NCBI GenBank assembly: GCA_963575745.1
Contig: CAUYUJ010000181.1
Location: 186,001-250,000, forward strand
DNA length: 64,000 nucleotides
Direction of reading: 5' to 3'
From: Prorocentrum cordatum
Lineage: Eukaryota
Of the stretch, positions 1-46,305 are shown one piece after another; the stretch's first letter is position 1; the number at the start of each line of letters is the position of its first letter. The position numbers and the translations under genes are program-made. The notes under the pieces were generated by a model. That model searched no databases. It was given only the letters and a program-made list of their open reading frames with translations, and was not told the DNA's origin.

Positions 1-2568
1 CGGGCTGCTGATCAGCTTTCGCGTCACGGCATTCAAACGTCTGACTTGCAGATTGGTGGGCCCTTGAATTTTCTGAAGAGAGACCACGCATACCATGAGC
101 CAGATTTGGGTAAGAAGGGCATAGGCGAGAGCTCCTCGCAGGCTGACGAACATGTCGGTAATGAGTTTCGTGGCTTTGGCATCGGCCGCCGCTCCTGTAA
201 GTTCTGGGTGTGTGATAGGACGTAGTTGTTTGATATACTCGTCCTGGTCCATGATCACATCTCCTTGATCATTCTTAGTGTAGCGAACGGCGCAGTTCGT
301 ATATGTGTGCTTGTTGAGCTTGCATTTGCCAAACACCTTTTCGACGCGTTGTACATAGTCGTCTATATTTTTCTCTAGACCTGTCATGTTAATATCATCG
401 ACATGTTTTGCCGTCAGAAGGTCGTGGCTGAATTCAAATTCAGGATCGTAGCTGGTCGGTGTAAGTCCTATAGCTCGTGTGGTCGTACGAAGTTTGAGAG
501 AGAACGCTCTTGGAGCGTCCTTTGTACCCGTTCCTGGTTTGAGGCATCTAAGACAGTGTCGACTTTCGTCGTAGGATGAGAAGCCGGGTAATGTACGAAG
601 TACCTGAGCACTTCCTGGTGGAAGAGTAAAGCAAACCATGCGAGTTTCCTCGCCGGTGGCATGGGCAAGTTCCTCATAGGTCAAACCCTTGAGGAACGCC
701 TTATCGATATCCATGGATGCTAAGATCCACTCTGGATGGCATGCCGCTTCACTTGCCAGGAGTCGTTGGGACTGCCTTCGGGCGGTTCCCGAGAATGTTT
801 CCACATCAAAAGCCTCAGTATCCATAAATCCACGAAGGACCAGTCTGAGACGAATGGTTTTAACGTTCCCGGTACCCATCTTTACGAACTTCCACTTGTA
901 TACATACCTGGATGTCATGATGTTGGAAGCTTTGGATAGATCATACATCTCAAAGCATCGGTTATCAATCCAGATTTTGAGCTCAGTATACAAAGCTTCA
1001 CGAACCTCCTTTGGATGTGCTGCTATGTCGGCTTTGGTCAGTAGATCATCTTCTTTGACAACCGCAGCACGTTTAGCAGCAGAGGATACATATACTCTCA
1101 TCGTTGCGACCATGTCGGTATCGAGCTGTGCAAGTTGAGTCTGATCCAACACTATTTTTGACATTTCTGATGTAAAGCATAATTCAACGTAAGGACCATA
1201 TTCATCACTGTCAAGAGAGTAGCTCTCGTCGGTTGTGGTTGAACAAAGAGAGACTAGACAGGACTCACGTGATTTCGGCTCGTCTCCGAGCATATCTGAT
1301 GATATAATATCATCTTCGTCCACAAATGCTGAAACCAAAACACATTGGTCGGGCAGCATAGTTGTTGGGACGCAATAAAGATAATCATCGGTAATCGTCG
1401 TAGGATGAAGGTCCATACGTAGCTCGCCGTACCACTCTTCCAGCATCATAGCTTCGATATGGTGTTCCCAATTTTCCTCATAGATTGTCGACAGACGGCC
1501 TTCACTCGGCGATGCAGCATCTGGTGTGTCTGGAGAAGGCCTGTTTCCAGGCGACTCGTGTTCTCCAGACGTGTTGCTTGAATGCTGATATTGAACCAAA
1601 TCGTCGTGAAATCCTAAGGAAGGGACACGTGAAGTCAAGCATTGAATAAGTCTGGAGTGAGTGCTACCAGTGATCTGAGAAATGTTTAAGCCGGTGCCCA
1701 CACATTCGTAATAGTGGAACGCCGGGCTGATGTCGTTGTCATAGTGGATCAGCGTAGACCCGGTGGCGTACTTTACTGCAGGTAGGCTTGACACACTCTT
1801 AGCCAATCGAACTGCTACTACATGTTCTACTCGGAAGTAATTTCGTACGAGATACTGTAGTGCTAAGTGTACGCGCGGGTGAAACTTGCTGTCGTCTGAC
1901 AGATTAAGGTTTCCCTTGTAATCGGGGATATACCCGAAAACTTTGGCAGGTTTCCCTGCGCTGAGGTGTGCCACATAAGCAAGGACGGTTTGCATGGCCA
2001 TATTATCCATGCCAAGTTCCCGTGTGAGGAGACATTCGATGTATAGTGTGTGACGAGCATCAGGATACATCACAATTACCTCACGAGATCCTGCCTTGAC
2101 AACAATATGTCCTCTTTCAGGCACATTTCGGATCACCGGGAATGGGCCATTCCAGCCTCCATGGTCGTCCTTGGTGGCAGTAGGTCGGTGGTAATCGACC
2201 AAATCCCCTGATGAGTAGAGGCGAGCACCATCAGGAGTCGTCTTAGCCCTAAGAGCCCGATTTGTCTTGGCCACAGCAGTAGCCGGAGTTATAGCTTCTA
2301 GGCTGACTTCCCTTACACGACGTTCTCGTTCGTGTCCTGAAGTCTCGGGTCCCTTGGGAAAGTCAAGGGTATCGAGATCAGGGAGGAAAGAGGGCTGACG
2401 TCCTGTGTGTGCCTGATATGGCGATACTCCGTTATAAAACGTAAGCGCATTAGTAACGAAGATGCCTTCCGCCAATACTCTAGTGAATACAGCAAGGATG
2501 TTGTGTCGATTCAATTCTTCCTCAATCATGTGGAGAGCGCCTCTGATAATGCCGTTTCGTGACTCAAT
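1..2568 (-). CDS. Pol C-terminal part: integrase C-terminus, linker and copia-type reverse transcriptase (truncated by the window edge)
   Basis: Manually translated frame: SRYVYKWK..RLRLVLRGF, SMDIDKAFLKG, GTKDAPRAF, KHVDDINMTG, MDQDEYI, LRGALAY. Absent from the ORF track because it runs off position 1. Confidence 0.9.
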   Translation of the reverse strand, partial: MESRNGIIRGALHMIEEELNRHNILAVFTRVLAEGIFVTNALTFYNGVSPYQAHTGRQPSFLPDLDTLDFPKGPETSGHERERRVREVSLEAITPATAVAKTNRALRAKTTPDGARLYSSGDLVDYHRPTATKDDHGGWNGPFPVIRNVPERGHIVVKAGSREVIVMYPDARHTLYIECLLTRELGMDNMAMQTVLAYVAHLSAGKPAKVFGYIPDYKGNLNLSDDSKFHPRVHLALQYLVRNYFRVEHVVAVRLAKSVSSLPAVKYATGSTLIHYDNDISPAFHYYECVGTGLNISQITGSTHSRLIQCLTSRVPSLGFHDDLVQYQHSSNTSGEHESPGNRPSPDTPDAASPSEGRLSTIYEENWEHHIEAMMLEEWYGELRMDLHPTTITDDYLYCVPTTMLPDQCVLVSAFVDEDDIISSDMLGDEPKSRESCLVSLCSTTTDESYSLDSDEYGPYVELCFTSEMSKIVLDQTQLAQLDTDMVATMRVYVSSAAKRAAVVKEDDLLTKADIAAHPKEVREALYTELKIWIDNRCFEMYDLSKASNIMTSRYVYKWKFVKMGTGNVKTIRLRLVLRGFMDTEAFDVETFSGTARRQSQRLLASEAACHPEWILASMDIDKAFLKGLTYEELAHATGEETRMVCFTLPPGSAQVLRTLPGFSSYDESRHCLRCLKPGTGTKDAPRAFSLKLRTTTRAIGLTPTSYDPEFEFSHDLLTAKHVDDINMTGLEKNIDDYVQRVEKVFGKCKLNKHTYTNCAVRYTKNDQGDVIMDQDEYIKQLRPITHPELTGAAADAKATKLITDMFVSLRGALAYALLTQIWLMVCVVSLQKIQGPTNLQVRRLNAVTRKLISSP

Positions 2569-3100
2569 TTAAGTCGCGTGTTGGCCAGGTGCTCGGATAC
2601 GAAGTTCCGTGCCCTTATTGGCCATCATGGTTTTAGCGGCATCGTTATTCAGGGCGCCTTCTCCGTCTGAGTATAAAACTTTGAAGGGTCCATGATAGGC
2701 AATCCAGCAGTAAGTGGTAGGCGTCAATGATAGTGTCACGTTCTCTGTCGGAAATTTCTAGGCCTGCTGCCAGGCGAATACAACGATCCATAATATGGAA
2801 TATGGTCCGTTTCTTGTAGAACATGAGGTCCATTCCCCCTTCATCGAGCCAGTTACCAGGAAGGCTCACCGATGGTAGTGTTGAGTTTCCTGGACGTTCC
2901 CATGCTCTGCATTCCCGACAGGTATCGCAAACTTCCTTGATCATGTTCAGTCGAACGTTATCAAGCCCCACCTTTTCGAGGATTCGCCTCATCTTTGGCT
3001 CCTTCGCATGATGCCATCGCAGATGCAGTTTTCGGAGTTCCTTTTTCACGACATGGGGTTCGTGACTACGGAGACTCTGTAGACTGTGTTGGATGTCGAA
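2100..3100 (-). pseudogene. Integrase (HHCC, DDE core, GPF C-terminal motif), with a frameshift at ~2713 and an in-frame TAA at 2569-2571
   Basis: LHLRWHHA...CDTCREC; MDLMF; LYSDGEG; HAT*IESRNG; GVSPYQ; GDLVDYHR...GGWNGPF, read by hand across frames. Confidence 0.85.
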
Positions 3101-3789
3101 TCTTGTCCAGTCGGGTAGTCGAGGAGCCCCAGAGCCGGTGGAGGCAAGAGGGTTCCTTGTAGCTCTCCGTAGTTGGTCCCCTGTGTTGACTGCGTCTGGA
3201 GGTGGTGGTACGCCTTGTAGACGGCCGCGGCGGGCCGCTACCTGTGGCGCCTCGCTAGAAGACGCGGAAGGCGTGTTTCCACGCTCGGGGGCGTCTCGTA
3301 GCATGTCGTAGCTGCTGGCACCAGATGTCGGATCGACGTTACCGAAGGATCGTGGTCGTGGTGGCCTGGCGTGTGCGCCTTGACGGCCACCTGAAGCTGA
3401 AGCTTGGCCCTCACCAGGTTTAGGTAAGGGTTTCCACCAAGCTGGCACGGTTTTGCCTTCGGGGTCGTGGTCGTCTGGGTTTAAATGGTTCAGCAAAACG
3501 ACATTTACCAGGTTCGGTATCGAGGTGGTTCTTAACACCCTTGCTTCTCGTAAGATCCCTCTGACATGCTGGACATGGCCAATATACAGAGATGGAATCA
3601 TGATATTTACACTGCGTAGGGTCTCTGTTATGGCTAGGACTGTCCTTTCTGACGTTGTCGATGCATGCCGGGCAAGTAGCCACCTTTGGGATGATACGAT
3701 CACCGATGCGTCTCACACCTTCGCCTGGTTCGGCTTGATCGGGAAGGTCTGCAGGATAAGCATGTGCGGTGCTTATAGGCGCGTTTCCG

Positions 3790-5793
3790 CGCGTGGCGTC
3801 AATGGCTTTCGCCAAATAGACGGCTTCCACGAAGGCAGACTGCAATCGTCGAGTGTATTTTTGTGCCAGTGAAAGCTCTGTATTGCACGGTTGTGCGTGC
3901 ACATGCTGACCGTTGCATTTGAGTCGCTCAAAGGGTTTAAGAATTGTCTCGTTGTTGCTGGTGATATGTGTCGGCTTCTTAATATAGTCACCAGTCGTAT
4001 CTTTAAGTCCCGTAGCGCATTGGTCAATGCGTACGGTTGTAATGTGTGGTCGGTTGGCAAGCATCGTCCATGGAGAAATATCATCCACCCATGTTCCTGT
4101 AGGTTGTTCGCGTATAAACCACCTCCGGGCGTCATCTTGGGTTACAGCAATTTTACCACAATAAATTATGTGTGGTGAGTCTTCTTTATGGTGCTGTTCC
4201 CAAGTGTTGTAGTTGACTTTGTAGTTGTAATAGGATGGTGGTCCTGTGGTGCGGCAGCTGGGTTGCAGCATGGCAACTCGTACGTAGCATATAGCAAAGT
4301 AATGATCTATAACCTGCTGTACCGAGGGGTCTCCCAGGTCGACATATGTAGTCTTGTCCAGGTTGCCGCCTGAGGAAAGTCCCCATTGAGAAGACAAGCT
4401 CTGAGATGCCACCCTCACCGCCACAAAGCTCCAACATATCCACGCAGTTGTTATGACCATAGCATAGTGTAGCAACTATGCTGTATATGTTAGCGTGTGT
4501 GTCGGGCATAGATGTGGGGAGGGTAAGGAACAGGTCATCGTCCTCGTCGGAGCTTATCAGCTCAACAGGGACGTCAGTACTCCAGGTTGCCATAAGATCC
4601 TGTCCGAGTCCTGACAAGTCGTCGCCGCAATCATCGTTTCCGTCTTCAACGTGCTTTTTAATGCGGCGAGGCTTGATGCCTGCTTCCTTTTCGGCTTTGA
4701 GCCTCTCCTTCTGCTTTATACGCGATTCAGTGGGTAAAGCTTGCTCGTCTTGTTCGTCGGTCTGTGTACTCATTGTCGTGGTTGAATGGGTACATGCGTC
4801 AATCGCCAGAGTCGGGAGGGGGAGAGAACAGTCATCTATGATGACGCGTCGATGTTTCTGTGGTGATTGAGTCGGCTCGTTTCCGAGCAAGACCGGTTCC
4901 TCGGGTTGCCAATACAACCGAGTACTGATGTTGGCAACCCCTGCAGGTAATGGTGCATGCCAATCATATCCTGTTGGTTGATCGGTAACTGAGATATCCT
5001 GAATAACCGCATTGGTATCCAGGTTGATTGTTACACGTCGGATGACTTCAGACCATTTTGGTCCTCCCTTATTAGTCGTCACGTAGTGACGGGTGTTATG
5101 GTCTGTACGTGTATACGTATTTAAGTATACGGGCACGTTTCCGTGCGTGGTGGTGCTCCCCAGGATGTTGTCGTTCAAGTGACGGATGAGTGTAGTGCGT
5201 GTCTGAGCTCGCCATTCAGCATGCCGCACTGCATGGCCGTACCAATCCAACACATGTTGTGGTATTGCCTGCTTACAGGTACATGCCCACAGCTTCGAGC
5301 TAATCGGTATTGATGATGCTACCTGCATATAAGTACCGCTTGGTGTAATGTCTTGCATATTGAACCGAATACCGAAATGACACAAACGCATCCGTATTAC
5401 TGACAACTTTAGATCTTCCAGGGTATCACGTACTGGAGATAACTTCCAAACATATCCTGGGGGACCAAATATTATGATCTTCATGCGGAGTTTCTTGGCT
5501 TTTATCAACAGGTTCTGGATACGTGACCAATGTGGGGCCACTCTCTTTCCTGGAGTTCTTACGTACCAGTCACCCGGAGTACTGATCCATATGAGAGTGT
5601 AATCTCCACTGATCACCGCACCTAGGTAGTTTGTGCCCACGCTTGTCATAAGTTCGTTGTGGGAAATACGATCACAAATATAACCTCGTGTGCGAAGGTC
5701 GGCACATGCCTCCCTCGTATCTTCAATGACAAAAGCCCTCTTACTAAGGCAGGTTACCCCGCTGTCCTTGTTACCCCCCGGCTTTTCAGCCAA
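3790..5793 (-). pseudogene. Two DNA cytosine methyltransferase-like domains (degenerate copy ~5250-5740; second copy ~3800-4445 with a frameshift near 4380)
   Basis: Second copy: DMLELCGGEGG (motif I-like), LQPSC (IV-like), REQP (VI-like), DQC..G..KKPT, CxxxHxH, AQKYT (X-like). First copy: LIWISTP, IFGP, RLCHFG, CTC..HV. Confidence 0.7.
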
Positions 5794-5832
5794 CAGGCAA
5801 GACGACGAGGGGGCGACGTCGCCCTGCCATCT

Positions 5833-8256
5833 TCAAGATGAAGAAGATGTGCCTGCAATATCTGCCAGCATCTGGGCTTCCCTCAGATGCTGGAGCTCAG
5901 CGCTGCAGCGCGCCGTGGCCTCAGAGGCGGATTGCTCCGCAAATGCTGTCAGCATCGATGGATTATCCATCAGCTGTTTCAGCACGCCTTTGGACCTAGC
6001 GTCGCTGACCGTATGCAATTCACGATTAGTGTATCCCATCACTATCTTACGGCGGGACTGTACAGCGTCCATGGGTACACTTCCACCATGCTGTGCCAGT
6101 GTCCTGGCAACAAAACAATCGAACGTCTCAAGATCGTCGATGGTGTCGCCTCGTTTGGTGGCCTTGGCGAGTGTCTCCATCAACCCCTGAGGCAGGTTTC
6201 CCTGCAATTGCTCGCGCTCCTGCGCCGGGGTCGGCTCGCCCGTCAGCACTGTCTGAAATGGCGTGCTGCTTGAGCTCGAGGCGGGTTGCCCCGCAGCTCC
6301 AAAACAATCACACCTGATCGACAGATGCCCTGACGGCAACTTTGTCGTCGGCATGATCTTGGAGCCCTCAGGGAGCTCCATTTTGACCTGCCCCTTACCA
6401 GGGAATATCAGCTTCTCCTGGCCTCGCTCAAGCACGATGATCGTGCGTTTATCTTGCATACTATCGAGGCCTAGGATGGCTGGCAGGTCCTTGCCACAGC
6501 CTGACACAATGTTCGTCTTGTATGAATCGAGTTGGGCCGACCCCTGGTACTCGCAGGCAATACTGAATGTGCCTACGGTATCCGCTGGGGCCGACCCTTC
6601 TCCCACTCCGTTGATATTCAAACGAGAGCGGGGCTCGAACGCACAAGTGCGGCCATGTACCTCGGCAGCCTGGACGAACTTACGGCTCGTGTTCTCGCCC
6701 ATGATGTTGATCTTCGAACCGACATCGATGAGTATGGAATTTCCACCATCATCCAGGAACGTCTTACTCGGCTGCTTGATGTGCACAGTCTCTGAAGTGT
6801 CGGCTGTGTCGGTAGGCGGGTTTCCCCGCGGCACAGTCGCACTCCCTAGCGGGTTACCCCGCCTGACACTGGCATGCGACTCGCTTTCGGCCATGCGCGC
6901 CAGGTCGATGTACTGGAAGTACGACACGTGCTGGGCGTGATCGCCACGCTCCTCCCGCCAGTTGGCATACTCATCACGTATGCTCTTATGCTGCTCGCGG
7001 GTCGTGCGCCTTGTCAACGTCAAGTACGAGTGAAGGGCGATGTCTTGCAGCCCCTCGTTCGTGATGTGATCCCGGTACTGCAGCCACTCCTCGAACTCCT
7101 CGTTCGTCGCTGCGATGTTGACGGCCCTGGCTGCTGTTGCTGCTGACGCCACTGAGGATTCTGATAGGTCTAGCGACGGACTATCAGTTTCAGGGTTGTT
7201 GGCATCCAGCATAAATGTTGTGTGCGTATTATCCATCTGATTCTGGAAATGTCGTACACGCAATTCACGCAGCTGATCAGGGTCCAGTGCCATCTCAGCC
7301 CCGTCTCCACTCTGGGGAGACATCTGAGGAGTACCATGCAGGTTTCCCTGCTGAGGCGCCGTCATCGGGATAAGCTGATCAAAGTATCCCGTCTCCATAG
7401 GCGGCCTTACCTCTTCTGGCAGGTGTCCCTGCTGTTGGGACTGGGCTGTCTGCATAACTAGCATCCCAGCCGTCATCTCCTCCACCATGCTCCTCAGCTC
7501 CCGCAGCTCTCTCGCTGACTGCTCAGGAGTCTGACTAAAGGAGCCGGTCCATGGGAAGGATGATGCTATGATGCCAGGTGCTCGGCAGATAGCACATGGT
7601 GGCTGCTGGGGATCTCCTTCACGCTGGTTTGTAACGTGGCCCACCACATTAGAATTCCAGCATCCCTCGTGGAACAAGTGATTGCACCTCAGGCGGTAAA
7701 CACTGTCCCTGGGCTGAAATTCTTCGAGGCATACCGCGCAGGTATCTTCCATCCCAGTAAAGACCTCTACGTCTGCTGCCCTGGGATATACCCGCCGCTG
7801 CCTCTCCAGTACCGTCTCGGAGGGCATGAAGGCTGATGGGGGAGTCCCCGTTAGATCCATCACCTCCGGCACTTCGACATTTGGCATGGAAGTGGTAGGA
7901 GTCACGGCGGGCGAGTTACCTCGCAAAGGTGAGCCCCTGTTTCTCACCACATCAAGTGCAGCTGCACGTGACTGATCCCGTACACTTTGCGCCGCCTTCC
8001 TTCTCCTGAAGCATGCCTGCTGAGTGTGGTGCGTCTGCCTGATGTAGTCAGGCACGCCCCTACTGCCAGACGATATTGAATGGGCAGTGGGCTGGACAAC
8101 CACCTCTGGTGATGTCGGTGAAGGCATGAAGGCCATGTGCGGGTACATGGAATGGTCACTGCAGCGCACATTAGTGAGGTTATGCATCTGATCCGCCAGT
8201 TCACGAACAAATTTGTTCGGAACCCTTGACCCATCAGGGTATAATGGCGGGTTCAT
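5833..8256 (-). CDS. Polyprotein segment: RING-H2 finger (~7580-7745) and retropepsin-like aspartic protease (~6310-6760)
   Basis: CAVCLEEF..RLRCNHLFHEGCW...CAICR (C3H2C3); ILIDVGSKINIMG ... INGVG ... PAILGLDSM. Confidence 0.85.
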   Translation of the reverse strand: MNPPLYPDGSRVPNKFVRELADQMHNLTNVRCSDHSMYPHMAFMPSPTSPEVVVQPTAHSISSGSRGVPDYIRQTHHTQQACFRRRKAAQSVRDQSRAAALDVVRNRGSPLRGNSPAVTPTTSMPNVEVPEVMDLTGTPPSAFMPSETVLERQRRVYPRAADVEVFTGMEDTCAVCLEEFQPRDSVYRLRCNHLFHEGCWNSNVVGHVTNQREGDPQQPPCAICRAPGIIASSFPWTGSFSQTPEQSARELRELRSMVEEMTAGMLVMQTAQSQQQGHLPEEVRPPMETGYFDQLIPMTAPQQGNLHGTPQMSPQSGDGAEMALDPDQLRELRVRHFQNQMDNTHTTFMLDANNPETDSPSLDLSESSVASAATAARAVNIAATNEEFEEWLQYRDHITNEGLQDIALHSYLTLTRRTTREQHKSIRDEYANWREERGDHAQHVSYFQYIDLARMAESESHASVRRGNPLGSATVPRGNPPTDTADTSETVHIKQPSKTFLDDGGNSILIDVGSKINIMGENTSRKFVQAAEVHGRTCAFEPRSRLNINGVGEGSAPADTVGTFSIACEYQGSAQLDSYKTNIVSGCGKDLPAILGLDSMQDKRTIIVLERGQEKLIFPGKGQVKMELPEGSKIMPTTKLPSGHLSIRCDCFGAAGQPASSSSSTPFQTVLTGEPTPAQEREQLQGNLPQGLMETLAKATKRGDTIDDLETFDCFVARTLAQHGGSVPMDAVQSRRKIVMGYTNRELHTVSDARSKGVLKQLMDNPSMLTAFAEQSASEATARCSAELQHLREAQMLADIAGTSSSS

Positions 8257-8280
8257 CTGCGCTGGTGGTGGCCTCTGGCC

Positions 8281-11200
8281 CTAAGACATGCTCGGATGGG
8301 CATTGAACGCCGGGATAAAGGCTCGTTGCCGAGCAGGATCCCGCGGGTTGGGACCCTCAGGTTCACAGGACCAGGCTGGCCTCCACCTCTGCCCACTTGG
8401 GTGAGGCAGATTATGGCTCTGCACCTGCTGCACCGCGGCCGCCACTCTTGAGCGATAGTCGTCAGGTACACCAGCCCTATGGTGGCTTGGTGTGCCAGGC
8501 AGGTTTCCCTGCTGACTCGTTGGCGTGCCGGGCGGCATCATGTTGAGGAGAGCTGTGCTGTGTTCAGCCCTAGCCGCAGCTATCCTTTCCATGAGAGTGC
8601 CGTTTGTGGCAGGGCGGACAGGTGTCCCGAACGGGGATTGCGCAGGTGGTGTGCCCAATGGAGTCATGCCCCTTGGAGTGTGCATGCTCTGAGTGGGGCT
8701 TCCATGCATTTGCTCAAACCGAGCAGGTCCGCTTGTAGGCAGGTTTCCCTGCATGGCCTGACGATTTCTCGTTGCCATAGCGGACATTGCCCCCTGGCCT
8801 GCGGCCCAGGGGTCCTGCTGGTATAACCTGTCCGCCAGCTGTTCTACCTGGTCAGGGTTCAGCGCGGCTGCGATCTGATCCAGGTCCGAGGTACTGATGG
8901 CCTGCCAAGACACGGCACTAGGCCCTTGGCTTGGGGCACGGCTTGGAGCCGCGCTCCCGGCCTCACTCTCGGTGATCATGAAGATCCGATGGATCTCAGG
9001 CTGGTTTCCCAGCTTGGTAGGGCTATAGTGGTCCCCAACTTCCCTGTGGAGGTAAACCATAGGGGGGTCAACACCCTCTTGGTCTCGGGACCACTGGTAT
9101 TTAATGCTAGCAGTGCCAACGTCAGCCCACCTGTCAGGAGCAGACATCATTGCGACAGAGACTCGCGCATGGCGGTTCCCCAGATACTCTGGATTACGCC
9201 AGTGCCTTCCCGTGGACAGGTCCTCTACATGAGAGATGTAGTACGCTTCAATGATACCGTTATTTCCCTCGGACAAGAGGACTCCGTTATCGGACCAACA
9301 GAACTTCATACCATCTTGTATGGCCTTACGCCAATCTACGAAGATGATGATGTCTGAGTCTGGGTCCCACCCACTGTTGACGGCACGGCGGCGAACTGTC
9401 GGCACGGAATGAATGTGCGACCGGCCTGTCCATCTTTTCTTCGTGTTATGCTCAGGTCTACAGGACAGGCCGTGCCACATAATACCTTCGAAGGCGTGCC
9501 ATCGAGTGCCATGCATGGCCACTTCGGGGTATGGGGCCGGTCTCCCGGCAGGTTGGTCGCACAGCATAATGTAGCTGTACAGCGACCATGGAGCTTTCAA
9601 TGTCCATGAGTGCCCCTGAGAGGCGCGGATGAAGATAGCGGGCTCGCCGGAGTCCTGCATCAACACCTTGAACTGTAGGCGCTGTTTTTCTTCTCCGTCT
9701 GGTTCGCGGACATGAACAACCTCCATCATGATGGCTGCTAGTTGGTCAACCGAGCGCCCATATAGCTGCTCGTTGATGACTTTGGCCTCGTCATATTTTG
9801 GATTATACCCAGCGTGTTTTGATTGACCTGTGTTCCACGGATAATGGTTCACGAGCTCCACGAGGTTAACCCAACCATCATGATCATCGAAAGATTCCAG
9901 GCCCCACACAGGATTGTGTGGTCTGTCTGGCGCATGTCTGCATATCCTGCTGAGAGCTTTACTCAGCTGTTTGAGAATGTCATTTGATGTGGGAAGGATT
10001 CCAGCTTTCCTGCATTCCTTCATGAATGTCTCATCCACCGAGCGTATCGGTGGGATCTTCCGAAGCGAAATTCTATCCCTGATCACATTCGGAGCCCCAC
10101 TAGTGAAGGACGTGTCACCTGGGTGGTGCAGCTGATCCACTGGCGGGTTTCCCCGCATACGAGCCTCTGTCGCTGCAGAGGCTGCGGCTCCTGAAGAGGA
10201 TGAAGCTGCGGCGGCAGCGCCTGGCGGGTTTCCCCGCGGTGATGCGCGACTGGCGCTGCCCCTGATCTTCGGCACCCAGGTACCCCTCGACATAGCACCT
10301 TCATCGGACTTCCTGGAACGGGCCGCCACAGGCGAAGCTGGCGCAGGGGCATACCCACTGCGCTCGAAAGCTGCCGCCCTTTTCGCAATGGAGCTGCTGC
10401 GACTAGGCGGGCGTCTTCGTTCCTCCACAGGGTCCTGAGGTTGCTGCTTGGGCTCAGACGCTTGTGTAGGAGTTGCGCCAATCGGCGGCCTCGGAGTTTC
10501 AGTTCGAGGCACCTCCATCTGCACGTCCGGCCCAGGGTCCTGAGAGCTCACCTTCGGTTTCGGCCCCGAGGACGGCTTAGGTGTCGGGGGTTCACTCTTA
10601 GCCTTCGAAGTTAGTGGGAGTGGGGGCTTCGTAGCCCCCTTCATGTAGATCTTGCTGGAATCCTCCAACATCTTGCGAGTTGCCTCGCGAGTGCGTTCTT
10701 CTGCTGTCCGCATACGCTCCTCGTCCTCCGCCACACGTTGAGCCTTTTTCTCATCCTTGATTGTCGGTTCTGGTTGTTGGGACTGGCTAGAAACGCCAGG
10801 CGAGTTTCCTCGCATACTAGGAAGACTAAAGAGCGCGTCTTTCTCTTCCTGGGTCGTGGCTACCAGTCCCCTTGGAACCGGAGTAGGCTTCTCTTCTTCT
10901 TTCAGATCCAAGTGGCTCAAGATCCCGAGACGACGATTCACTGCGGCGATCTCGTCTGGTGTCATCGGGATAAGTAGCGGATGACCATCTTTGTGAAGGG
11001 TTTTGCCCCGGTTGGGGCTCAGGCCTTCGTTGTTGCCAACGGGGCATCCTGGCCTGTGGTTCTGGAACGGCTCGGAACAAGGTCCGCAAGCTGCGTGGGG
11101 CCTATACTGCTTGCGAGCCGCGATAATGTCTCGCAGCTGAGTCCGCGCTTCTTGAATTTCAGGGCGGCGGATATTTGTTGCAAGCTGATAACCTCCGCGG

Positions 11201-13155
11201 ATGGCCTTGCCCTCACTATCCCTATAGGCAGGGTTGCCCTTGCCGAAGGCCGAGTGTTCCCCTTTTCGGCGTCTTGGATCGTTATATGGAAGTAGCTGGC
11301 CCCCTCTCCTGAGAGCGTGTTCTTTGGGGCCAGCCTGCCTCCACTCACGAGGAAGTCGAGCCTGTGGATGTGGCTCTTCTCTGACGCGCGTATGGGAACG
11401 AGACCTTCTGGTGTTCTCATCAGAAGAAGCTGCCGAAGCAGCAGGAGCGGCACCCGGTGGAGGTGCCTGAGGAGGCTCCTGTGCGATCCCAGATGGATCG
11501 TCCGATGGAGGCAGGTCTCCCTGCTGGATGGAGCTCTGCGCAAATGGCGCTTGTGCCGATGGTGATGATGATTCAGACTCGTCAGGATCGAAGTCAACCT
11601 CTTCCTCACCATTCACGTCCATCATGAGGATGGTGACGTCATCCTCATCTAACCCGCATCCATCGCCTTCTACTTCTTCTGATGTCGAACTACCGATGAT
11701 GATAGCCATTGGCGTATCTGGTACAGGCAGGTTTCCCTGCATAGCCGGCGTCTGTGCGTCGCTCGGCTGCCCCGGGGAAGGAGACGCTGTTGTCGGCTCA
11801 GGCTCGTTGCCGAGCACAGGCTGCCCGGCAATATTGCGCATGGCCGTACGGTTTGGCCACATTCCCACCGCCTGGAGACCCCATCCTGGCGGAGGAAGAT
11901 CATGACCGCGCATAGCAATGGCCATTTCTAGAGCATGACGCCATCTACCACGGGAGTATATCAGGTGTCTCTGCACGTCCTGAGGATGCACGCCTTCAAT
12001 GAGAGTCAGAGCTGCCAACAACAGCTCTGAGCTACCACAAGCGTCAGTATCCTGCATTATCATAATGTCAGCTTCGATATGTTCTTGACTTTCAGGATAA
12101 CCAGTAATAAGTATCTCATGCATCCTCATGAGGGTCTGCACAAGGGTGCGTGGTCCATATTCGCCTGGAGCAAGCGAACCAGGAGGTATAAACGGAGTAT
12201 CTGGTTCGCCTGCAATGAAGGCCTGAACAAATGCCTGAGACTCCATTTCGATTAAGTCTTCAGTGGTCTGGGGATATTCTCCCATCAAAGAAGGCCTGTT
12301 TCCAGGCGGGATTTCGGGCGGAGGTTCGAGGTGTCGTTGAACCTCGGAAGGCGAAGCTTCTATAGTGGTGTCCTCGTCGCTACTCTCGTAGGCCATGATG
12401 TTGCCTGGGTTCCCGAACATCCAGTCGAAGAAGGATAAAGGGTAATTTCCCAGCGTCCCGTGTTCCACGGGAGTGAGCTCGTTGTTGCCCTCAACGAACC
12501 TGCGAACGTACTCGAGGTAGTACGCGTACAATCCATGACCATACGCCTCGAGCTCGTCGACGTTGTCCATGCCAACAACCCAAGTGACAAATATCTGCTC
12601 CATAGCCTCAAAGTCCTGGAGGCTCAGATACTCAATGAATGGTTCACTTGAGCCAAAATGGACTTCGGTCGACCTGCCCTTTCCATTTCCCTTCACTGGA
12701 CAATCTCGCACAAGATGATCGGTACTATCACATTCATGGCATTTAAGAACCTGGCCGTCTCTACCTCGCGGGTTTCCCCGCCTACCTTTGCCTTTTCCTG
12801 AGGTCTCTCTACGGCCTTTACCACGGCCCTTTCCCCCAAAGAATATCTCATCATGTTGTTCATCTGAGAGCCTCTGGAGAAATGCCGCGATGCCTCGTCC
12901 GTTCAACCTCCGACGACCTCGCTTACCTTTACCTTTTCCCTTAAAACTTCTCCGTGTCCTCCTTCTAACACGACGCACTGGTTTTCGTGTGAACCTCCTC
13001 CACCTTCGTTTAGCCTGTTGTAGTAACCAGAACAAATGTTCAGCACGCTGATTGTCGTTATCCATATTCATGATATCTGACCAATCTAAAGCTTCAACAC
13101 CATCTGATGATATAGTGTCTGTATCGGTGCCGGAGTCGAAATCCTCGTCTCCCAA
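8281..13155 (-). CDS. Gag C-terminus (CCHC Zn knuckle) fused in frame to cargo including a Tpt1/KptA NAD-dependent RNA 2'-phosphotransferase domain (~9220-9980)
   Basis: GKGKG-rich tract and CHECDSTDHLVRDC. Tpt1 motifs: LSKALSRICRH, DGWV, KQRL, IRASQGHS, HGT, GRSHIHS, SDNGVLLSEG..GII. Confidence 0.88.
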   Translation of the reverse strand: MGDEDFDSGTDTDTISSDGVEALDWSDIMNMDNDNQRAEHLFWLLQQAKRRWRRFTRKPVRRVRRRTRRSFKGKGKGKRGRRRLNGRGIAAFLQRLSDEQHDEIFFGGKGRGKGRRETSGKGKGRRGNPRGRDGQVLKCHECDSTDHLVRDCPVKGNGKGRSTEVHFGSSEPFIEYLSLQDFEAMEQIFVTWVVGMDNVDELEAYGHGLYAYYLEYVRRFVEGNNELTPVEHGTLGNYPLSFFDWMFGNPGNIMAYESSDEDTTIEASPSEVQRHLEPPPEIPPGNRPSLMGEYPQTTEDLIEMESQAFVQAFIAGEPDTPFIPPGSLAPGEYGPRTLVQTLMRMHEILITGYPESQEHIEADIMIMQDTDACGSSELLLAALTLIEGVHPQDVQRHLIYSRGRWRHALEMAIAMRGHDLPPPGWGLQAVGMWPNRTAMRNIAGQPVLGNEPEPTTASPSPGQPSDAQTPAMQGNLPVPDTPMAIIIGSSTSEEVEGDGCGLDEDDVTILMMDVNGEEEVDFDPDESESSSPSAQAPFAQSSIQQGDLPPSDDPSGIAQEPPQAPPPGAAPAASAASSDENTRRSRSHTRVREEPHPQARLPREWRQAGPKEHALRRGGQLLPYNDPRRRKGEHSAFGKGNPAYRDSEGKAIRGGYQLATNIRRPEIQEARTQLRDIIAARKQYRPHAACGPCSEPFQNHRPGCPVGNNEGLSPNRGKTLHKDGHPLLIPMTPDEIAAVNRRLGILSHLDLKEEEKPTPVPRGLVATTQEEKDALFSLPSMRGNSPGVSSQSQQPEPTIKDEKKAQRVAEDEERMRTAEERTREATRKMLEDSSKIYMKGATKPPLPLTSKAKSEPPTPKPSSGPKPKVSSQDPGPDVQMEVPRTETPRPPIGATPTQASEPKQQPQDPVEERRRPPSRSSSIAKRAAAFERSGYAPAPASPVAARSRKSDEGAMSRGTWVPKIRGSASRASPRGNPPGAAAAASSSSGAAASAATEARMRGNPPVDQLHHPGDTSFTSGAPNVIRDRISLRKIPPIRSVDETFMKECRKAGILPTSNDILKQLSKALSRICRHAPDRPHNPVWGLESFDDHDGWVNLVELVNHYPWNTGQSKHAGYNPKYDEAKVINEQLYGRSVDQLAAIMMEVVHVREPDGEEKQRLQFKVLMQDSGEPAIFIRASQGHSWTLKAPWSLYSYIMLCDQPAGRPAPYPEVAMHGTRWHAFEGIMWHGLSCRPEHNTKKRWTGRSHIHSVPTVRRRAVNSGWDPDSDIIIFVDWRKAIQDGMKFCWSDNGVLLSEGNNGIIEAYYISHVEDLSTGRHWRNPEYLGNRHARVSVAMMSAPDRWADVGTASIKYQWSRDQEGVDPPMVYLHREVGDHYSPTKLGNQPEIHRIFMITESEAGSAAPSRAPSQGPSAVSWQAISTSDLDQIAAALNPDQVEQLADRLYQQDPWAAGQGAMSAMATRNRQAMQGNLPTSGPARFEQMHGSPTQSMHTPRGMTPLGTPPAQSPFGTPVRPATNGTLMERIAAARAEHSTALLNMMPPGTPTSQQGNLPGTPSHHRAGVPDDYRSRVAAAVQQVQSHNLPHPSGQRWRPAWSCEPEGPNPRDPARQRAFIPAFNAHPSMS
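12647..12669 (-). other. Dinoflagellate spliced-leader relic inside the LTR element ORF
   Basis: Minus strand ACCGAAGTCCATTTTGGCTCAAG vs SL DCCGTAGCCATTTTGGCTCAAG; the 3' 15 nt are a perfect match (translated HFGSS). Confidence 0.8.
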
Positions 13156-13336
13156 GTAGGTGGATACACCGTCGGTTAGGGGGTTTGATTCCCCCCATAA
13201 AGAACGGTGTGGTTGTGGTTCTCTAGAAGGAGGGCTGGTTGCCCAGCTTGGTTGTGATCGATCCCCTGCTAATAAAGCAGTGGATTATCATGGGTCATCG
13301 GGCCATATGCTTGAGGGCCCGTTTCCAGGCTGGGCT

Positions 13337-14440
13337 TCAGTAGTCAGGGTAGAAATTTCCACTACCAGATCCCCTTCCCCTTCCAAACACAGATCCTATG
13401 TTACCAGGAGACCGTTCAGATAGGTGGCCTATCGAACGCATCCTCTCCAGCAACTCATCATACTGTTGTTGTGTTCGGGGCATTTGGTGATTGAGTGGCT
13501 GTAAGAGTTGCATGGCTCGCTGGTTGCCGACGCCTAAGGCGCGGAATAGGATAGTGGTTAGCAGTTGGAAGTTGGGAAGGTCGAATCCCACCGACTGTGC
13601 CTCAAGTCGGGCCATTTCGAATCGGGTAAGGGTGACATCGATTCGTTCCCCGTGAGGCACGTGGAAGTCGATGAGTTGTGTGCCGGAAGTGAGCTGTCGC
13701 TCATCTTCCAGGCGTTCGAACTTCATGCTTAGGAGGAACATGATGTAGGTCACTGGGTCGGTGTGGACCCCATCGATGTCAGCACCATAGTTTATAATGT
13801 CAGGCGGTACCCTCATGGCGAGTGTCCTCGCTAGGCCACCTAGGCCGCGTTGCATTGCGGCCGCTTGGGCCTGTGGCGTCATACGTCCGCTTGTAACGTT
13901 GAGCCATGCGTTGACCTCGTAAATGTACTCGCGAAAAGGTACATTACCTTGAGGGTCCCAATATGGGCCATGTGTTTGCCCATCGGTGCTGTTTTCTCCA
14001 CGACGCATGTGTCCGATTGCTGCCCCCAGCGCGAACCATATACTTGCGAAAACGACTAGCCCGAGAATGTGTAGAGAAGGACGGTTATTATGCGCGTTGC
14101 CGCGCTGGGGTAGCGCCTTGTCGAGTCTTCGAGGCGCTCTATCTGGCGGGTCTCCCCACCTCTGCTTCAAGTATTGCGCTGTTAGCTCGTTGCCGAGCGG
14201 TTGGTGGTAACGCAATGATGAAGCGTATATGGTACCAATCTGGTCGTCTAGACGTCGTACCTCTCGTGTAGCTTCTTGCTCTTGGATAGATCCTCGTAAA
14301 CGTACTGGGAGTGGTGGCGCAGGGTGGTAGGTGGTCACGAAGATCGTGCCGAAGAATATGAGGCTAAGAAGAGCAAGAGCTGACCACACGAGAGCGCGGC
14401 CAGCTCCGCTACCAAGTCGAAAGTGAGCCTGGTAACTCAA
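13337..14440 (-). CDS. Gag-like protein with two N-terminal hydrophobic segments (true start uncertain)
   Basis: GPYWDPQGNVPFREYIYEVNAW...QAAAMQRGLGGLARTLA resembles the capsid-like region of protist copia Gag; it lies directly after the LTR/PBS. Confidence 0.7.
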   Translation of the reverse strand: MSYQAHFRLGSGAGRALVWSALALLSLIFFGTIFVTTYHPAPPLPVRLRGSIQEQEATREVRRLDDQIGTIYASSLRYHQPLGNELTAQYLKQRWGDPPDRAPRRLDKALPQRGNAHNNRPSLHILGLVVFASIWFALGAAIGHMRRGENSTDGQTHGPYWDPQGNVPFREYIYEVNAWLNVTSGRMTPQAQAAAMQRGLGGLARTLAMRVPPDIINYGADIDGVHTDPVTYIMFLLSMKFERLEDERQLTSGTQLIDFHVPHGERIDVTLTRFEMARLEAQSVGFDLPNFQLLTTILFRALGVGNQRAMQLLQPLNHQMPRTQQQYDELLERMRSIGHLSERSPGNIGSVFGRGRGSGSGNFYPDY

Positions 14441-14443
14441 ATA

Positions 14444-14456
14444 GCATCCGATTCCA
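14444..14456 (-). promoter_or_regulatory. Candidate primer-binding site TGGAATCGGATGC
   Basis: TGG directly after the candidate LTR's terminal CA; loosely resembles the copia iMet PBS TGGTATCAGAGC. Cognate tRNA not identified. Confidence 0.45.
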
Positions 14457-14563
14457 TGATAGACATCGGATGGCAAATCGCGTCCATCGCTCTGCTGATA
14501 GTACACTATGAGGGGTGGACGGATAAGATAGGATAAGATCGATGTAATGATCTTTCCAGCACA
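14457..14563 (-). repeat. Candidate 5' LTR (~107 bp, TGTGCTGG...CTATCA)
   Basis: Begins TG, ends CA, and is immediately followed by TGG. Sequence to its right belongs to an unrelated degraded LINE. The second LTR is off-window, so this is unconfirmed. Confidence 0.55.
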
Positions 14564-14599
14564 TGGCGAACACTCGCGGCGTCCGGGCAAATAGGGCGC

Positions 14600-15400
14600 G
14601 CGTGCCTTGGGCCAAAGGCAACGGCGCGCGCGAGCTATGCTCCCGATACTATAACATCTCCCAAAGACCTACCCTTAAAGTCAGGCGAGCACGGTCCAAG
14701 TGGAAGGTGCGGATGGCAGGGAGTGGGCAGTGCTCCTCGTCCTTCTGCAGCCACGCGCCGAGGGTCTCCTCGTTTATGCCGCGACCTCGGAAGCTCTTTG
14801 CCCAGTATTAGGAAAAAACAAGCGCCATAAACACAAACTTTGGGCACTCCACGCGGATTTCTTGGATCCGCGCCAGATCCCCCTCCCCAGCGCGCGGAGC
14901 GCGCCAAAGGCGGCGCCGGAAGCGCCGCCGGGGGGGCCCAGCGCGGAGCCAAGAAATCCGTGCGGAGAGCCAGACGTTTATGATATTTATGGTTTGTTTT
15001 TTCTCCGAAGTGGGTCTTCAACCATTCCGCCATGTCCTTCACGTCCGCGGTGCCCTCGCCACCGTCCTTGAGAATCGCAGCAACAGCGCAACTCCTTCCT
15101 GGAGCGAGCCAGCAGATGAGCCGCCGGTTGAATTGTCGGGACCGTCTGCGCTCTGAGCGCGTCCTCGCTGCCGAGGTCATCGCGAGAACGCTGGAGCTCG
15201 TCAAGCGCATGCTGCTCCGCCAACCGGACGGCGGAGTTGCGCGGCTGAGCCAGCTTCCTCGTCAAGCTACTCTGCAGATCGGACGGGCCCGCCACCTGCG
15301 ACCTGAGGACCGGGAAGCGGGACAAGCAGAGACGGACCTCTTCCGGGCCTGGCTCTCTCGATGGCTCGTGCCGACTGCACGGTCAATGCCAGCTTGTCCT
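14600..15400 (-). pseudogene. Degraded LINE ORF2 fragment (EN-RT linker) interrupted by a MITE
   Basis: LAPGRSCAVAAILKDGGEGTADVKDMAEWLKTH joins WAKSFRGRGINEETLGAWL when 14807-15008 and one AGT copy are removed. Confidence 0.55.
14807..15008. mobile_element. MITE family A (inner TIR CTCCGCGCGGATTTCTTGG); related copies ~46317-46413, ~54900-55055, ~58205-58385
   Basis: Long imperfect inverted repeats and AGT duplicated on both flanks; removal restores the host reading frame. Confidence 0.7.
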
Positions 15401-15433
15401 CGGCATCTTTGAGGGGCCCTGGGACACGCAAAT

Positions 15434-17830: not shown

Positions 17831-18242
17831 GCGCGCCCCGCAGGTGCTGGTGGCAGCGTTGGGACTTGGACCCACTCCACACACGGGGGCATCGGGCGCT
17901 CGTCAACCACAGCAGCCTGCCTCTTGCCAGGTAACGCTGGTCGCGTTGGCGCAGTCGCCCGAAGCCCACGCGTGCGTTTGTCCACAGCCGACTGCTGGCC
18001 CAGACGCTGCCATGCTGCAACTGCCTCGTCGTCCATGGGGATCAGTGGATGCCATAATGTGGCCAAGACATGCTCCCGTCGGGCGCCTGAGATGCCTTAG
18101 CAATCCTGATCGATCCGAGAAGCTGGCGCCACAACATAGGCAATCAACACCGTCAGCAAAGTACTGCGCCATGTCCTTTGGCTGGTGCACTCGAGTCCAG
18201 TGACCTCGATACCCAGCAACTGTTTGGAAAACCTGATCGCGC

Positions 18243-46143: not shown

Positions 46144-46305
46144 GAAGGGGCCCTGGGACACACAAATAAATACACACAAATAAAAATATTCCCCATATTT
46201 TCACATATTTTCTGGGTTTTTGTCTTCCCCCCACTTCCCATGTTTTCCCATATTGTCTGGGGAATCTACGATGAATTGTGTCTGTGTGTTCCTTACCCTC
46301 CTGAA
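46144..46305 (+). repeat. Dispersed ~150-bp repeat (GGGACACACAAATAAA..CCCATATTTT..TTGTGTCTGTGTGTT..CCTCCTGAA); copies 15411-16141 (split), ~45037-45193, ~57861-58029, ~59296-59451
   Basis: Five alignable copies, all on the + strand. Confidence 0.8.

Follow-up and report, generated by a model that had tools for sequence, protein, structure and literature searches.

The element described here lies on the minus strand of a 64 kb window, by which we mean the whole stretch of DNA that was analysed. It is a very large Copia-type retroelement and belongs to a small clade with gag-CCHC, Tpt1, RING and RVT_2 domains; the term LTR element, used in the sequence-only reading, is provisional, as the features shown are only the Copia-type RVT_2 and a gag CCHC knuckle, and the 3' end of the element lies beyond the window. 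RVT_2, the Copia-type reverse transcriptase domain, was found at 313..960 (E 3e-09, 37.3 bits vs a cut-off of 31.6), and the ORF containing it continues past the left edge of the window. The RING finger domain is located at 7582..7746 (zf-RING_11, E 1.1e-08) and the Tpt1/KptA RNA 2'-phosphotransferase domain, alignable to the solved TRPT1 structure 7yw3, at 9265..9972 (E 3.4e-23). The gag CCHC zinc knuckle (12688..12744) is a weak match under the cut-off, with C-x2-C-x4-H-x4-C kept in alignment A1. All four domains are on the minus strand, as are two in-frame stops. The stop at 8281..8283, where two ORFs of one frame abut, is private to the window copy, a different letter being present at 8283 in all four runs; the other, at 5833..5835, joins two ORFs sharing one frame. 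The sequence-only reading spoke of captured cargo in this element. A recent capture is not borne out, as the relative L002 has Tpt1 and RING in the same order and RING is also found in L002 and throughout the wider clade.

In the present study, the hairpin on the sense (minus) strand was modelled as GC-xy-G/GNNA/C-y'x'-GC, 14 nt long. Its stem has 5 bp: pairs 1, 2 and 5 are fixed as G-C, C-G and G-C, and the two in the middle are free to vary as long as they stay complementary. A search of the window with GCNNGTNNCCNNGC, which leaves the middle pairs unforced, gave 39 matches, whereas 100 dinucleotide shuffles averaged 4.0 and never exceeded 10. Among these, 36 are plus-strand matches inside 640-14198, which read GCxyG-GNNA-Cy'x'GC on the minus strand; in the remaining three (34288, 36838 and 40195) the middle pairs are not both complementary. 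The covariation claimed earlier for the middle pairs was thus borne out in 36/36 matches, 34 being Watson-Crick at both pairs and two having one G.U (5749 and 13317). The single orientation and the absence from neighbouring DNA also stood, with no model match on the antisense strand of the element and none on either strand of the adjoining 48.7 kb of the window. The loops are GAAA in 20 copies, GCAA in seven, and GAGA, GUAA and GACA in three each. The tetraloops had been described as GNRA, which fits 33/36 copies; the three GACA loops widen the class to GNNA (36/36), and 7/29 loops in L002 are UAAC or UCAC.

Overall, about 38 copies are present in 640-14198 (34 perfect, three with a G.U wobble and one loop variant), or approximately one per 380 nt within coding sequence. 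The reading frames of the 36 matches are x-G-N/D/H-x-P in 25, A-G/R-x-x-A in six and the third frame in four, and one match lies between ORFs. When synonymous codons were shuffled with the protein kept, the mean was 1.50 (sd 1.20, max 7, 300 runs) against 34 perfect copies, and shuffling of codon order gave a mean of 0.01. Therefore, the signal is at the nucleic-acid level rather than the peptide level, in agreement with the earlier proposal. The flanks of adjacent hairpins are unrelated (identity 0.20-0.37). The predicted folding energy of the 14-mers is -7.0 to -9.3 kcal/mol, and the hairpin stays intact in 32/37 minimum-energy folds with 50 nt of context on each side. A sixth stem pair is possible in just 2/37, the partner-shuffle mean being 5.5. 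A literature search returned no description of such a hairpin array.

All 28 starts listed as perfect in the sequence-only reading were confirmed. Its four near-perfect copies fared unevenly: GCGGGGTAACCTGC (5749..5762, G.U at pair 3) and GCCTGGAAACGGGC (13317..13330, U.G at pair 4) have G.U stems and the stem of GCAGGGACACCTGC (7419..7432) is perfect and closes a GACA loop, but 11228..11243 is a different, 16-nt variant with a GCAA loop and a 6-bp stem that includes one A.C mismatch. The list was also incomplete, missing the perfect copies GCTCGGAGACGAGC (1278..1291), GCCAGGACACTGGC (6095..6108, GACA loop), GCCGGGAGACCGGC (9536..9549), GCGAGGCAACTCGC (10675..10688) and GCGAGGACACTCGC (13818..13831, within the conserved gag peptide LARTLAM), and the variants GTGGGGAGACCCGC (14146..14159, U.G at pair 2) and GCCTGGCAGCAGGC (2762..2775, perfect stem with a GCAG loop). 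These and all the following hairpins are on the minus strand. Further pattern matches are GCGTGGAAACACGC (3271..3284), GCGCGGAAACGCGC (3779..3792), GCTCGGAAACGAGC (4875..4888), GCACGGAAACGTGC (5133..5146), GCGGGGTAACCCGC (6849..6862), GCAGGGAGACCTGC (11511..11524), GCTGGGCAACCAGC (13234..13247) and GCGCGGCAACGCGC (14092..14105). Several sequences recur: GCGGGGAAACCCGC at 6816..6829, 10143..10156, 10224..10237 and 12768..12781, the last encoding RRGNPR immediately upstream of the CCHC knuckle; GCAGGGAAACCTGC at 7338..7351, 8739..8752 and 11727..11740, among other sites; and GCTCGGCAACGAGC at 8321..8334, 11802..11815 and 14185..14198, the last being the first hairpin of the sense strand. GCGGGGCAACCCGC (6281..6294) encodes AGQPA.

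There are several mutational routes to these hairpins, some by substitution and some in short protein-linker insertions. GCGAGGAAACTCGC, also present at 10800..10813, lies at 640..653 inside the conserved sequence of the RVT_2 domain and encodes GEETR, where hairpin-less relatives read GEAER or GEPAR without an indel. Three other hairpins are located in insertions of 4-7 aa: GCCTGGAAACAGGC at 1539..1552 (5-7 aa vs L005/L023; another copy is at 12294..12307), GCAGGGAAACCTGC at 1946..1959 (4 aa vs L005/L013), and the copy at 9536, which encodes AGRPA and whose insertion falls in a surface loop of the Tpt1 domain.

The closest relatives are two metagenome contigs, L001 and L002, whose gag is 51% identical to that of the window element. 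The hairpin recurs on the sense strand of both, at a density of 3.3 per kb (29 in 8.8 kb of L002 and 12 in 3.7 kb of L001), and all fixed-letter GNNA matches pair (17/17 and 7/7, respectively). No GNNA-loop match was found on either strand in the 126,030 nt of 23 loci from more distant relatives. Most hairpin positions differ between the window element and L002, so that density is kept but position is not. GCTGGGAAACCAGC (9000..9013) shares its alignment column with L002 5974 but is 1 nt out of register, and the copy at 13317 is at about the column of L002 2137 in a different frame. In L002, 13/29 stems are GCGGG/CCTGC, which could reflect copying and not independent selection.

The two contigs are 83% identical overall and 81% outside hairpin columns. 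In the 10 hairpins common to both, the stems differ at 1/100 nt (G.U to A-U) and the loops at 3/40 nt; from the stem changes and the outside-hairpin identity, a binomial p of ~2e-8 was computed. The compensatory pairing anticipated in homologous elements was seen as well. GCGAGGTAACTCGC (7911..7924, GCGAG/CTCGC) shares one column and frame with GCGGGGCAACCTGC of L002 7053 (GCGGG/CCTGC). In family fragments at 7419 and at 8499..8512 (GCAGGGAAACCTGC), the peptide changes from Q..L to R..P with R..L (G.U) intermediates, and Q..P is absent from these fragments at both sites; two homologous copies read RGNP at 7419, and homologous copies at 8499 read RGDP (compensatory) or RGNL (the G.U intermediate). 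At 6192..6205 (also GCAGGGAAACCTGC), the peptide in homologous copies is either QGNL or of an RGNL/RGDL type that is compatible with a G.U pair. Hairpin compatibility was kept in 51/62 site-by-homolog comparisons, against an empirical substitution null of 30.6 +/- 3.8 (max 45, 300 runs), and in 32/43 changed peptides against 8.3/39.7, this null being approximate and the fragments and contigs few and not independent. Hairpin-coded residues in family fragments are no more conserved than others (306/401, 76%, vs 4289/5399, 79%), and the constraint is visible only in the kind of change. The sense-strand ratio of G.U to A.C is 2:0 in the window, 6:0 in L001 and 15:0 in L002, together 23:0, vs 3:9 in background loci. 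On these sequence comparisons, we consider it very probable that these are real stem-loops selected as RNA structure in the sense transcript.

Two uses raised in the sequence-only reading fared poorly. Stable ssDNA mini-hairpins in the cDNA fit poorly, because with G.U and never A.C wobbles on the sense strand, minus-strand cDNA would carry mismatches. For tetraloop-receptor compaction of the genome RNA, the canonical 11-nt receptor lends no support, its two halves being neither enriched nor paired up on the sense strand. Since evolution has kept the hairpins base-paired, they are probably repeated protein landing sites on the element RNA. Gag packaging is our best guess for their function. 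The sense transcript doubles as genomic RNA and mRNA, and every hairpin in it would be bound by one protein; the likeliest candidate, by guess, is the element's own Gag, whose arginine-rich segment and CCHC knuckle would make the contact. The array may thereby act as a self label on an RNA of unusual length and cause that RNA to be selected, condensed and packaged into particles.

No Gag feature tracks the hairpins, the arginine-rich segment and CCHC knuckle being equally present in hairpin-less relatives. The sole protein feature that does is Tpt1, which is encoded in L002 and in 0/26 proteins of hairpin-less relatives, hence only by the hairpin-bearing clade among the relatives compared. This points to a mechanism other than Gag binding. 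We hold an array of multivalent, identical protein-binding sites with a packaging function only tentatively, at slightly less than an even chance, and the whole statement, from selected sense-strand hairpins to a Gag-binding packaging array, is about equally tentative. According to two reports on ssRNA viruses (PMC6281560, PMC4751978), assembly is promoted by multiple dispersed stem-loops with a common motif. The packaging array suggested for this element would follow the same logic as these dispersed packaging signals.

In the 64 kb window, the degenerate pattern GCNNGTNNCCNNGC is matched 39 times, and 36 of these matches lie on the + strand at 640-14198; dinucleotide shuffles (n=100) gave a mean of 4.0 and a maximum of 10. 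These 36 matches mark a 14-nt hairpin on the sense (-) strand of a very large Copia-type retroelement, with the form GC-xy-G, a 4-nt loop and C-y'x'-GC. Although the pattern leaves both middle pairs free, they are complementary in all 36 copies; both are Watson-Crick pairs in 34 and one is a G.U pair in two. All 28 starts listed as perfect in the sequence-only reading were confirmed and six further perfect copies were found at 1278, 6095, 7419, 9536, 10675 and 13818, but its near-perfect copy at 11228 proved to be a looser 16-nt variant containing an A.C mismatch. Relaxing one letter added two copies, a U.G variant at 14146 and a variant with a GCAG loop at 2762. The model has no match on the antisense strand of the element and none on either strand of the remaining 48.7 kb of the window, which formed the whole of the comparison with other transposons and genes of the host. 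The loops of the 36 copies are GAAA (20), GCAA (7), GAGA (3), GUAA (3) and GACA (3); at the sequence level, 33 copies carry a GNRA tetraloop with a Watson-Crick closing pair, the other three being those with GACA.

Overall, about 38 hairpins are distributed over at least 13.5 kb of ORF sequence, roughly one per 380 nt, and their spacing is fairly even (mean 376 nt, CV 0.75). The RT-proximal third has 1.6-1.8 hairpins per kb, as compared with 3.0-3.6 per kb for the gag and Tpt1/RING part, and 14669-15300 has none. The stem length is fixed at 5 bp, and eight of the 14 positions do not vary. The folding energy of the 14-mers is -7.0 to -9.3 kcal/mol, and when the context of 50 nt on each side is folded to minimum energy, 32 of 37 hairpins appear to stay intact. 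Among the bases flanking the 14-mer, C is found at +1 in 29/37 and G at -1 in only 3/37, while no others are conserved. The C at +1 and the scarcity of G at -1 jointly prevent a sixth stem pair, which is possible in 2/37 only.

The element was recognized by a Copia-type RT (RVT_2, PF07727) at 313-960 on the (-) strand, with an E of 3e-09 and 37.3 bits, the cut-off being 31.6. The strand that encodes the RT carries, upstream of it, a gag CCHC knuckle (12688-12744, (-)), which is a weak Pfam match whose C-x2-C-x4-H-x4-C arrangement is conserved in the gag alignment A1. Profile matches were also obtained for a RING finger at 7582-7746 (-) and for a Tpt1/KptA RNA 2'-phosphotransferase domain at 9265-9972 (-). 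No rve or protease family was found in the 8 ORFs at E up to 0.01, and the relatives likewise show only RVT_2 and RING. Three ORFs, about 9.1 kb in total, share one frame and are split by single stops at 8281-8283 and 5833-5835 (-). The stop at 8281-8283 is private to the window copy, as 4/4 aligned runs show another letter at 8283, and the copy is slightly decayed. Copy number is very high, with 28,179 and 10,253 contigs aligned to the stretch in two runs. Besides the organisms coded A-C, metagenome runs of marine, plankton and, in one case, freshwater origin contain the stretch; there was no RNA run among the listed sequencing runs containing it. Among public proteins, the nearest are short fragments, 49-94% identical, which EukProt labels as Pyramimonas sp. 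Of the 40 variant places listed, out of 1873 in the sequenced runs, none fell inside a hairpin, as compared with about 1.3 expected.

The element continues past the left edge of the window, so that its 3' end is outside. On reading 14560-15480, no clear LTR end, PBS or repeat was seen. Sequencing depth climbs sharply across 14791-15300 in runs X1 and X8, and a GC-rich inverted repeat lies at 14869-14939, at which contigs of run X2 connect the two strands or omit 58-68 nt; the depth rise and the inverted repeat possibly represent an LTR or leader boundary. Just upstream of the first ORFs of the element in the sense direction, a tandem repeat with an 11-nt unit, present about 30 times, occupies 15465-15805. 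An Rfam scan of window 1-20000 at E up to 1 gave nothing at the hairpins and no ribozyme; its five sub-threshold matches all fell on this repeat at about 15.5 kb. An 87-nt unit (family D15) is dispersed in five copies, 67-100% identical, at 15982-16068, 45027-45113, 46146-46232, 57865-57951 and 59294-59380; it finishes in a T-rich/CCCCCC tail and is possibly the end of another repeat family. Much of the remaining window is occupied by a satellite with a period of 14 nt and by long microsatellites of (CCT/GGA)n and (TAG/TAT)n (47134-48100, 28525-28760 and 58907-59136).

With the gag alignment A2, which was trimmed from A1, 25 metagenome loci were recovered. The nearest are L001 (3.7 kb) and L002 (8.8 kb, with one ORF of 2653 aa), each 51% identical in gag, and both bear the hairpins. 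Fixed-letter matches with GNNA loops are all paired on the sense strand, 7/7 in L001 and 17/17 in L002. When the model was opened to all 4-nt loops, and to G.U as well as Watson-Crick middle pairs, L001 gave 12 sense and 6 antisense hairpins, and L002 gave 29 and 14. The loops of L002 are GCAA (13), GAAA (4), UAAC (4), UCAC (3) and five singletons, with GNRA in 17/29, and the stem GCGGG/CCTGC makes up 13 of the 29. In both contigs a second loop class, UAAC and UCAC, is carried on this stem with a constant G.U pair. The other 23 loci (126,030 nt, both strands) had no match with a GNNA loop; their gag is 32-59% identical, mostly over shorter matches. L002 is collinear with the window element in gag, knuckle, Tpt1 and RING. 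It follows that the region which had been taken for captured cargo is not a capture by this element but is ancestral to a small hairpin-bearing clade. A RING between gag and pol was also found in L005, L008, L009, L010 and L013 and in the sequences P0001-P0010, and appears to be an ancestral trait of a broad marine Copia-like clade with very long ORFs. The gag motifs SGTDTDT and KPVRRVRR, the latter arginine-rich, are invariant in 6/6 aligned relatives with or without hairpins. A metagenome scan with a single ORF of 1667 aa returned 24 pattern matches and zero relatives, and a scan of viral contigs with alignment A2 gave no relative. Exact 14-mers in viral contigs occurred as one match per locus among the 80 loci listed, and were taken as chance.

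The comparison of L001 with L002 shows that the stems are held under selection. The two contigs are 83% identical overall and 81% outside hairpin columns (2908/3584), whereas in the ten hairpins common to both only 1 of 100 stem nucleotides differs, namely a G.U changed to A-U (binomial p about 2e-8, by arithmetic from those counts). The loops of the same ten differ at 3/40 nt. Four hairpins are unique to one or the other contig, and two of these lie in 24-nt tandem duplications of L001; the hairpin at 1181 of L002 is separated from its L001 counterpart by five substitutions within the central six bases. Only a few hairpin columns are common to the window element and L002. The copies at window 7911 and L002 7053 share column and frame and differ as GCGAG/CTCGC and GCGGG/CCTGC, that is, by a double change and one G.U; window 9000 and L002 5974 fall in one column but are 1 nt out of register, and window 13317 and L002 2137 are in about the same column in another frame. 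Most others are lineage-specific, often adjoining gaps of 5-6 aa.

Protein fragments of the family, which give an indirect test, point in the same direction as the double change at 7911, and the compensatory pairing in homologs that the earlier reading had called for was observed. Sites coding Q-G-N-L were changed on both sides to R-G-N/D-P at 7419 (two fragments) and 8499 (one), the G.U intermediate R-G-N/D-L was found at 6192 (two fragments) and 8499 (one), and Q..P, which would be A.C, was never seen in these fragments. Hairpin-compatible peptides were found in 51/62 site-by-fragment comparisons, against 30.6 +/- 3.8 (max 45, n=300) under an empirical substitution null that is approximate, the fragments not being independent; on the same footing, 32/43 changed peptides were still compatible, against 8.3/39.7 in the null. 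Residues coded by hairpins are no more conserved than the rest (76% vs 79%), and the constraint seen in the family fragments lies in the kind of change, not in the number of changes.

The strand bias claimed earlier was also substantiated, with 36 sense and 0 antisense copies in the element. Hairpins with a single wobble, read on the sense strand, comprise two G.U in the window, six in L001 and 15 in L002 with no A.C, as compared with 3 G.U and 9 A.C in background loci; the wobble of the variant at 14146 is likewise U.G. The ratio of 23 G.U to 0 A.C indicates that the paired strand is the sense strand, and sense RNA is the natural candidate for the paired molecule. These findings demonstrate that the array consists of selected, strand-specific RNA hairpins.

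The view that the signal is carried by the nucleic acid held under a codon-preserving shuffle. Permutation of synonymous codons with the protein kept left a mean of 1.5 hairpins (sd 1.2, max 7, n=300) against 34 observed, and permutation of codon order left 0.01; the loss under synonymous shuffling indicates that codon choice is tuned toward stem formation. Among the 36 window copies, 25 read x-G-N/D/H-x-P, six are in the second frame, four in the third and one between ORFs, and the favoured frame of L002 is a different one, A-G-Q-P-A, used by 16 of its 26 in-ORF copies. The preference for one frame in each element would be expected of a recurrent peptide motif, x-G-N-x-P or A-G-Q-P-A, acting for example as a linker or protease site and leaving the hairpin incidental. 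However, the synonymous shuffle already largely refutes this explanation, and the use of all three frames, the different preferences of the two elements and coupled amino-acid changes that obey base-pairing rules reduce its probability to a negligible one.

The hairpins have arisen in different ways. The hairpin at 640 lies inside the conserved RT, where GEETR stands against GEAER or GEPAR of the relatives without an indel, and those at 12768 and 13818 lie within conserved gag peptides, again without an indel, whereas those at 1539 and 1946 lie in insertions of 4-7 aa relative to hairpin-less relatives. The hairpin at 9536 occupies a Tpt1 loop in which most of the more distant Tpt1 homologs aligned lack 5-7 aa, and its peptide PAGRPAP is kept exactly in family copies 63-71% identical while the flanks vary. 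At least 13 different stem sequences were counted. Tandem duplication was ruled out as the origin of adjacent window hairpins, as their flanks are unrelated (0.20-0.37 identity). A 9-nt snap-back insertion of loop and one arm was also ruled out by opposite indels of 4-7 aa and by hairpins without any. Several mutational routes with one product argue for selection over a single insertion mechanism. The hairpins might still be functionless, if a mutational or insertional process such as RT template switching or a REP/RPE-like mini-insert seeded palindromes that are tolerated; many do adjoin indels of 4-7 aa relative to relatives, two of L001 lie within the 24-nt duplications, and a single 14-mer is repeated many times in L002. 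We consider this very improbable, because stems changed at 1/100 nt against a background divergence of 19%, substitutions are compensatory and G.U-biased, 640, 12768 and 13818 lie in conserved peptides without an indel, flanks are unrelated with no fixed insert length, and one orientation is kept throughout.

With regard to function, strict letters at three of the five pairs, a fixed stem length, a preferred loop and multiplicity resemble a protein recognition site, and the array may be one such site repeated many times. Our best guess follows the model of ssRNA viruses with dispersed packaging signals: Gag of the element would bind the hairpins cooperatively, and this binding would select and condense the very long genomic RNA. 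This reading is weakened by the gag arginine-rich segment and knuckle, which are equally present in relatives without hairpins. That no Gag feature tracks the hairpins would suit an interface with the host, in which they would recruit or deflect a host RNA-binding protein for export, stability, translation or evasion of silencing or decay, and the evidence that an RNA structure on the sense strand is under selection fits it as well. Such a role is nevertheless unlikely, since a general host signal should recur elsewhere and neither the remainder of the window, other repeats included, nor the related elements contain the hairpins. An architectural role, with tetraloops docking for tertiary compaction or hairpins acting as local clamps against long-range misfolding, would agree with the GNRA-type loop in 33/36, the fairly even spacing and the stability of the hairpins. 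GAAA tetraloops have a canonical 11-nt receptor motif, but this receptor is not enriched, which gives no support to the compaction proposed in the sequence-only reading: the sense strand has one pair of the two halves no more than 200 nt apart, the antisense strand has three, and the 6-nt half occurs 2 and 4 times, respectively. Moreover, docking needs neither invariant stem letters nor a fixed 5 bp, and 7/29 hairpins of L002 have UAAC or UCAC loops; we therefore regard architecture as decidedly unlikely. DNA tolerates G.T as well, and the asymmetry of wobbles would fit hairpins on the plus (sense) DNA strand acting in reverse transcription or integration equally well; GNA/GNNA DNA mini-hairpins are very stable. 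But plus-strand DNA is copied from a minus-strand template and is single-stranded only briefly, and the long-lived single strand, the minus-strand cDNA in which mini-hairpins had been proposed, would have A.C mismatches at the 23 wobble sites, which leaves DNA hairpins a most improbable reading.

The Tpt1 domain is the only protein feature that tracks the hairpins. It lies inside the polyprotein of the window element and at aa 1387-1620 of L002, and none of 26 proteins from relatives without hairpins has it. In alignment with solved TRPT1, its RH, R, R motifs, which we take to be the Tpt1 catalytic tetrad, are in place, and only 15 library proteins matched the domain at E<=1e-10, mostly short fragments of the family. 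The hairpins may therefore be connected with RNA end-healing or with chemistry of the 2'-phosphate. In such a co-evolved module of array and Tpt1, the RNA would be cut at the hairpins or modified there by Tpt1 with the use of NAD; cutting might leave, for example, a 2',3'-cyclic phosphate, after which the host tRNA ligase would reseal the ends and Tpt1 of the element would strip the junction 2'-phosphate. The restriction of Tpt1 to the hairpin-bearing elements, the TRPT1 alignment and the hairpin retained in a Tpt1 loop in copies 63-71% identical speak for it. Against it, the window element and L002 form a single clade, so the co-occurrence is one evolutionary contrast; Tpt1 requires a 2'-phosphate only and is not known to need a hairpin; window 1-20000 yielded neither a ribozyme nor any other Rfam family; and we know of no endonuclease site that a 4-nt loop on 5 bp would fit. 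We hold such processing to be decidedly doubtful or slightly more so, but if true, it would mean a retrotransposon that brings along the chemistry to repair or mark its RNA, with a repeated 14-nt structure as the address.

RNA selection by LTR retrotransposons is understood in few models, via one structured leader region, and a near-identical hairpin throughout 13.5 kb of coding sequence looks like a different packaging solution. The polyprotein is visibly bent around the hairpins, by amino-acid changes in the RT and by short insertions in Tpt1 and linkers. As the motif is 14 nt, strict and provided with natural compensatory variants, the system is unusually clean experimentally; the hairpin could serve tests of multivalent RNA recognition and of the trade-off between structure and coding, and is possibly usable as a compact RNA tag. 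The analysis also exposes an algal clade of giant Copia-like elements with RING, to which the hairpin-bearing branch adds an RNA 2'-phosphotransferase. Titles and abstract openings in the literature outside subscription journals contained no description of such retrotransposon hairpins or of a transposon-borne Tpt1, and titles and abstract openings likewise gave no description of an algal clade of giant Copia-like elements with RING and Tpt1.

Several known systems share part of these properties. REP/RPE elements (e.g. Rickettsia RPE) are bacterial mobile repeats of conserved sequence and about 27-150 nt in length, found in both orientations and in many genes, some in-frame within ORFs. Like them, the hairpins described here are small, GC-rich, with tetraloop-like tips, and lie inside ORFs, often in variable protein loops. 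In contrast to them, the unit is 14 nt with freely covarying pairs, in one orientation and in one element family, and some copies were made by substitution without insertion. A unit of fixed length and sequence is not found here (640, 12768 and 13818 without indel, unrelated flanks, at least 13 stems), nor are both orientations or many host genes (the antisense strand of the element and the other 48.7 kb being free of copies). Lambda/P22 boxB has a 5-bp stem and a pentaloop with a GNRA-like fold, is bound by the arginine-rich N peptide and occurs 1-2 times per operon. The 5-bp stem is shared and gag here has the conserved arginine-rich KPVRRVRR, but the loop is of 4 nt, the copies number about 38 and relatives without hairpins have the arginine-rich segment too. 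Retroviral nucleocapsid recognizes tetraloop hairpins of the packaging region, which are few and clustered, and alphavirus packaging signals are several clustered GGG stem-loops inside a coding region. These signals, whose exposed G-containing loops are read by a Gag zinc knuckle or a capsid protein, resemble ours in such loops on short stems and, for alphaviruses, in location within coding sequence, and differ from about 38 hairpins over at least 13.5 kb of ORF sequence with strict stem letters. A likeness in distribution is found with ssRNA viruses (MS2, STNV, parechovirus, enterovirus), for which dispersed stem-loops with a common motif, coding regions included, are described that are thought to bind one capsid protein cooperatively (PMC6281560, PMC4751978, PMC5431903, PMC7793301). 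As in those viruses, many motif-sharing stem-loops lie along the genome, here at 1.6-3.6 per kb in every ORF segment, and the RNA structure is conserved in relatives. The viral signals are described as degenerate, whereas here the stem always has 5 bp and 8/14 positions are invariant; moreover, a Copia-type retroelement carries them and not an icosahedral ssRNA virus. With these likenesses and differences, the array belongs with the known dispersed cis-acting RNA hairpin arrays.
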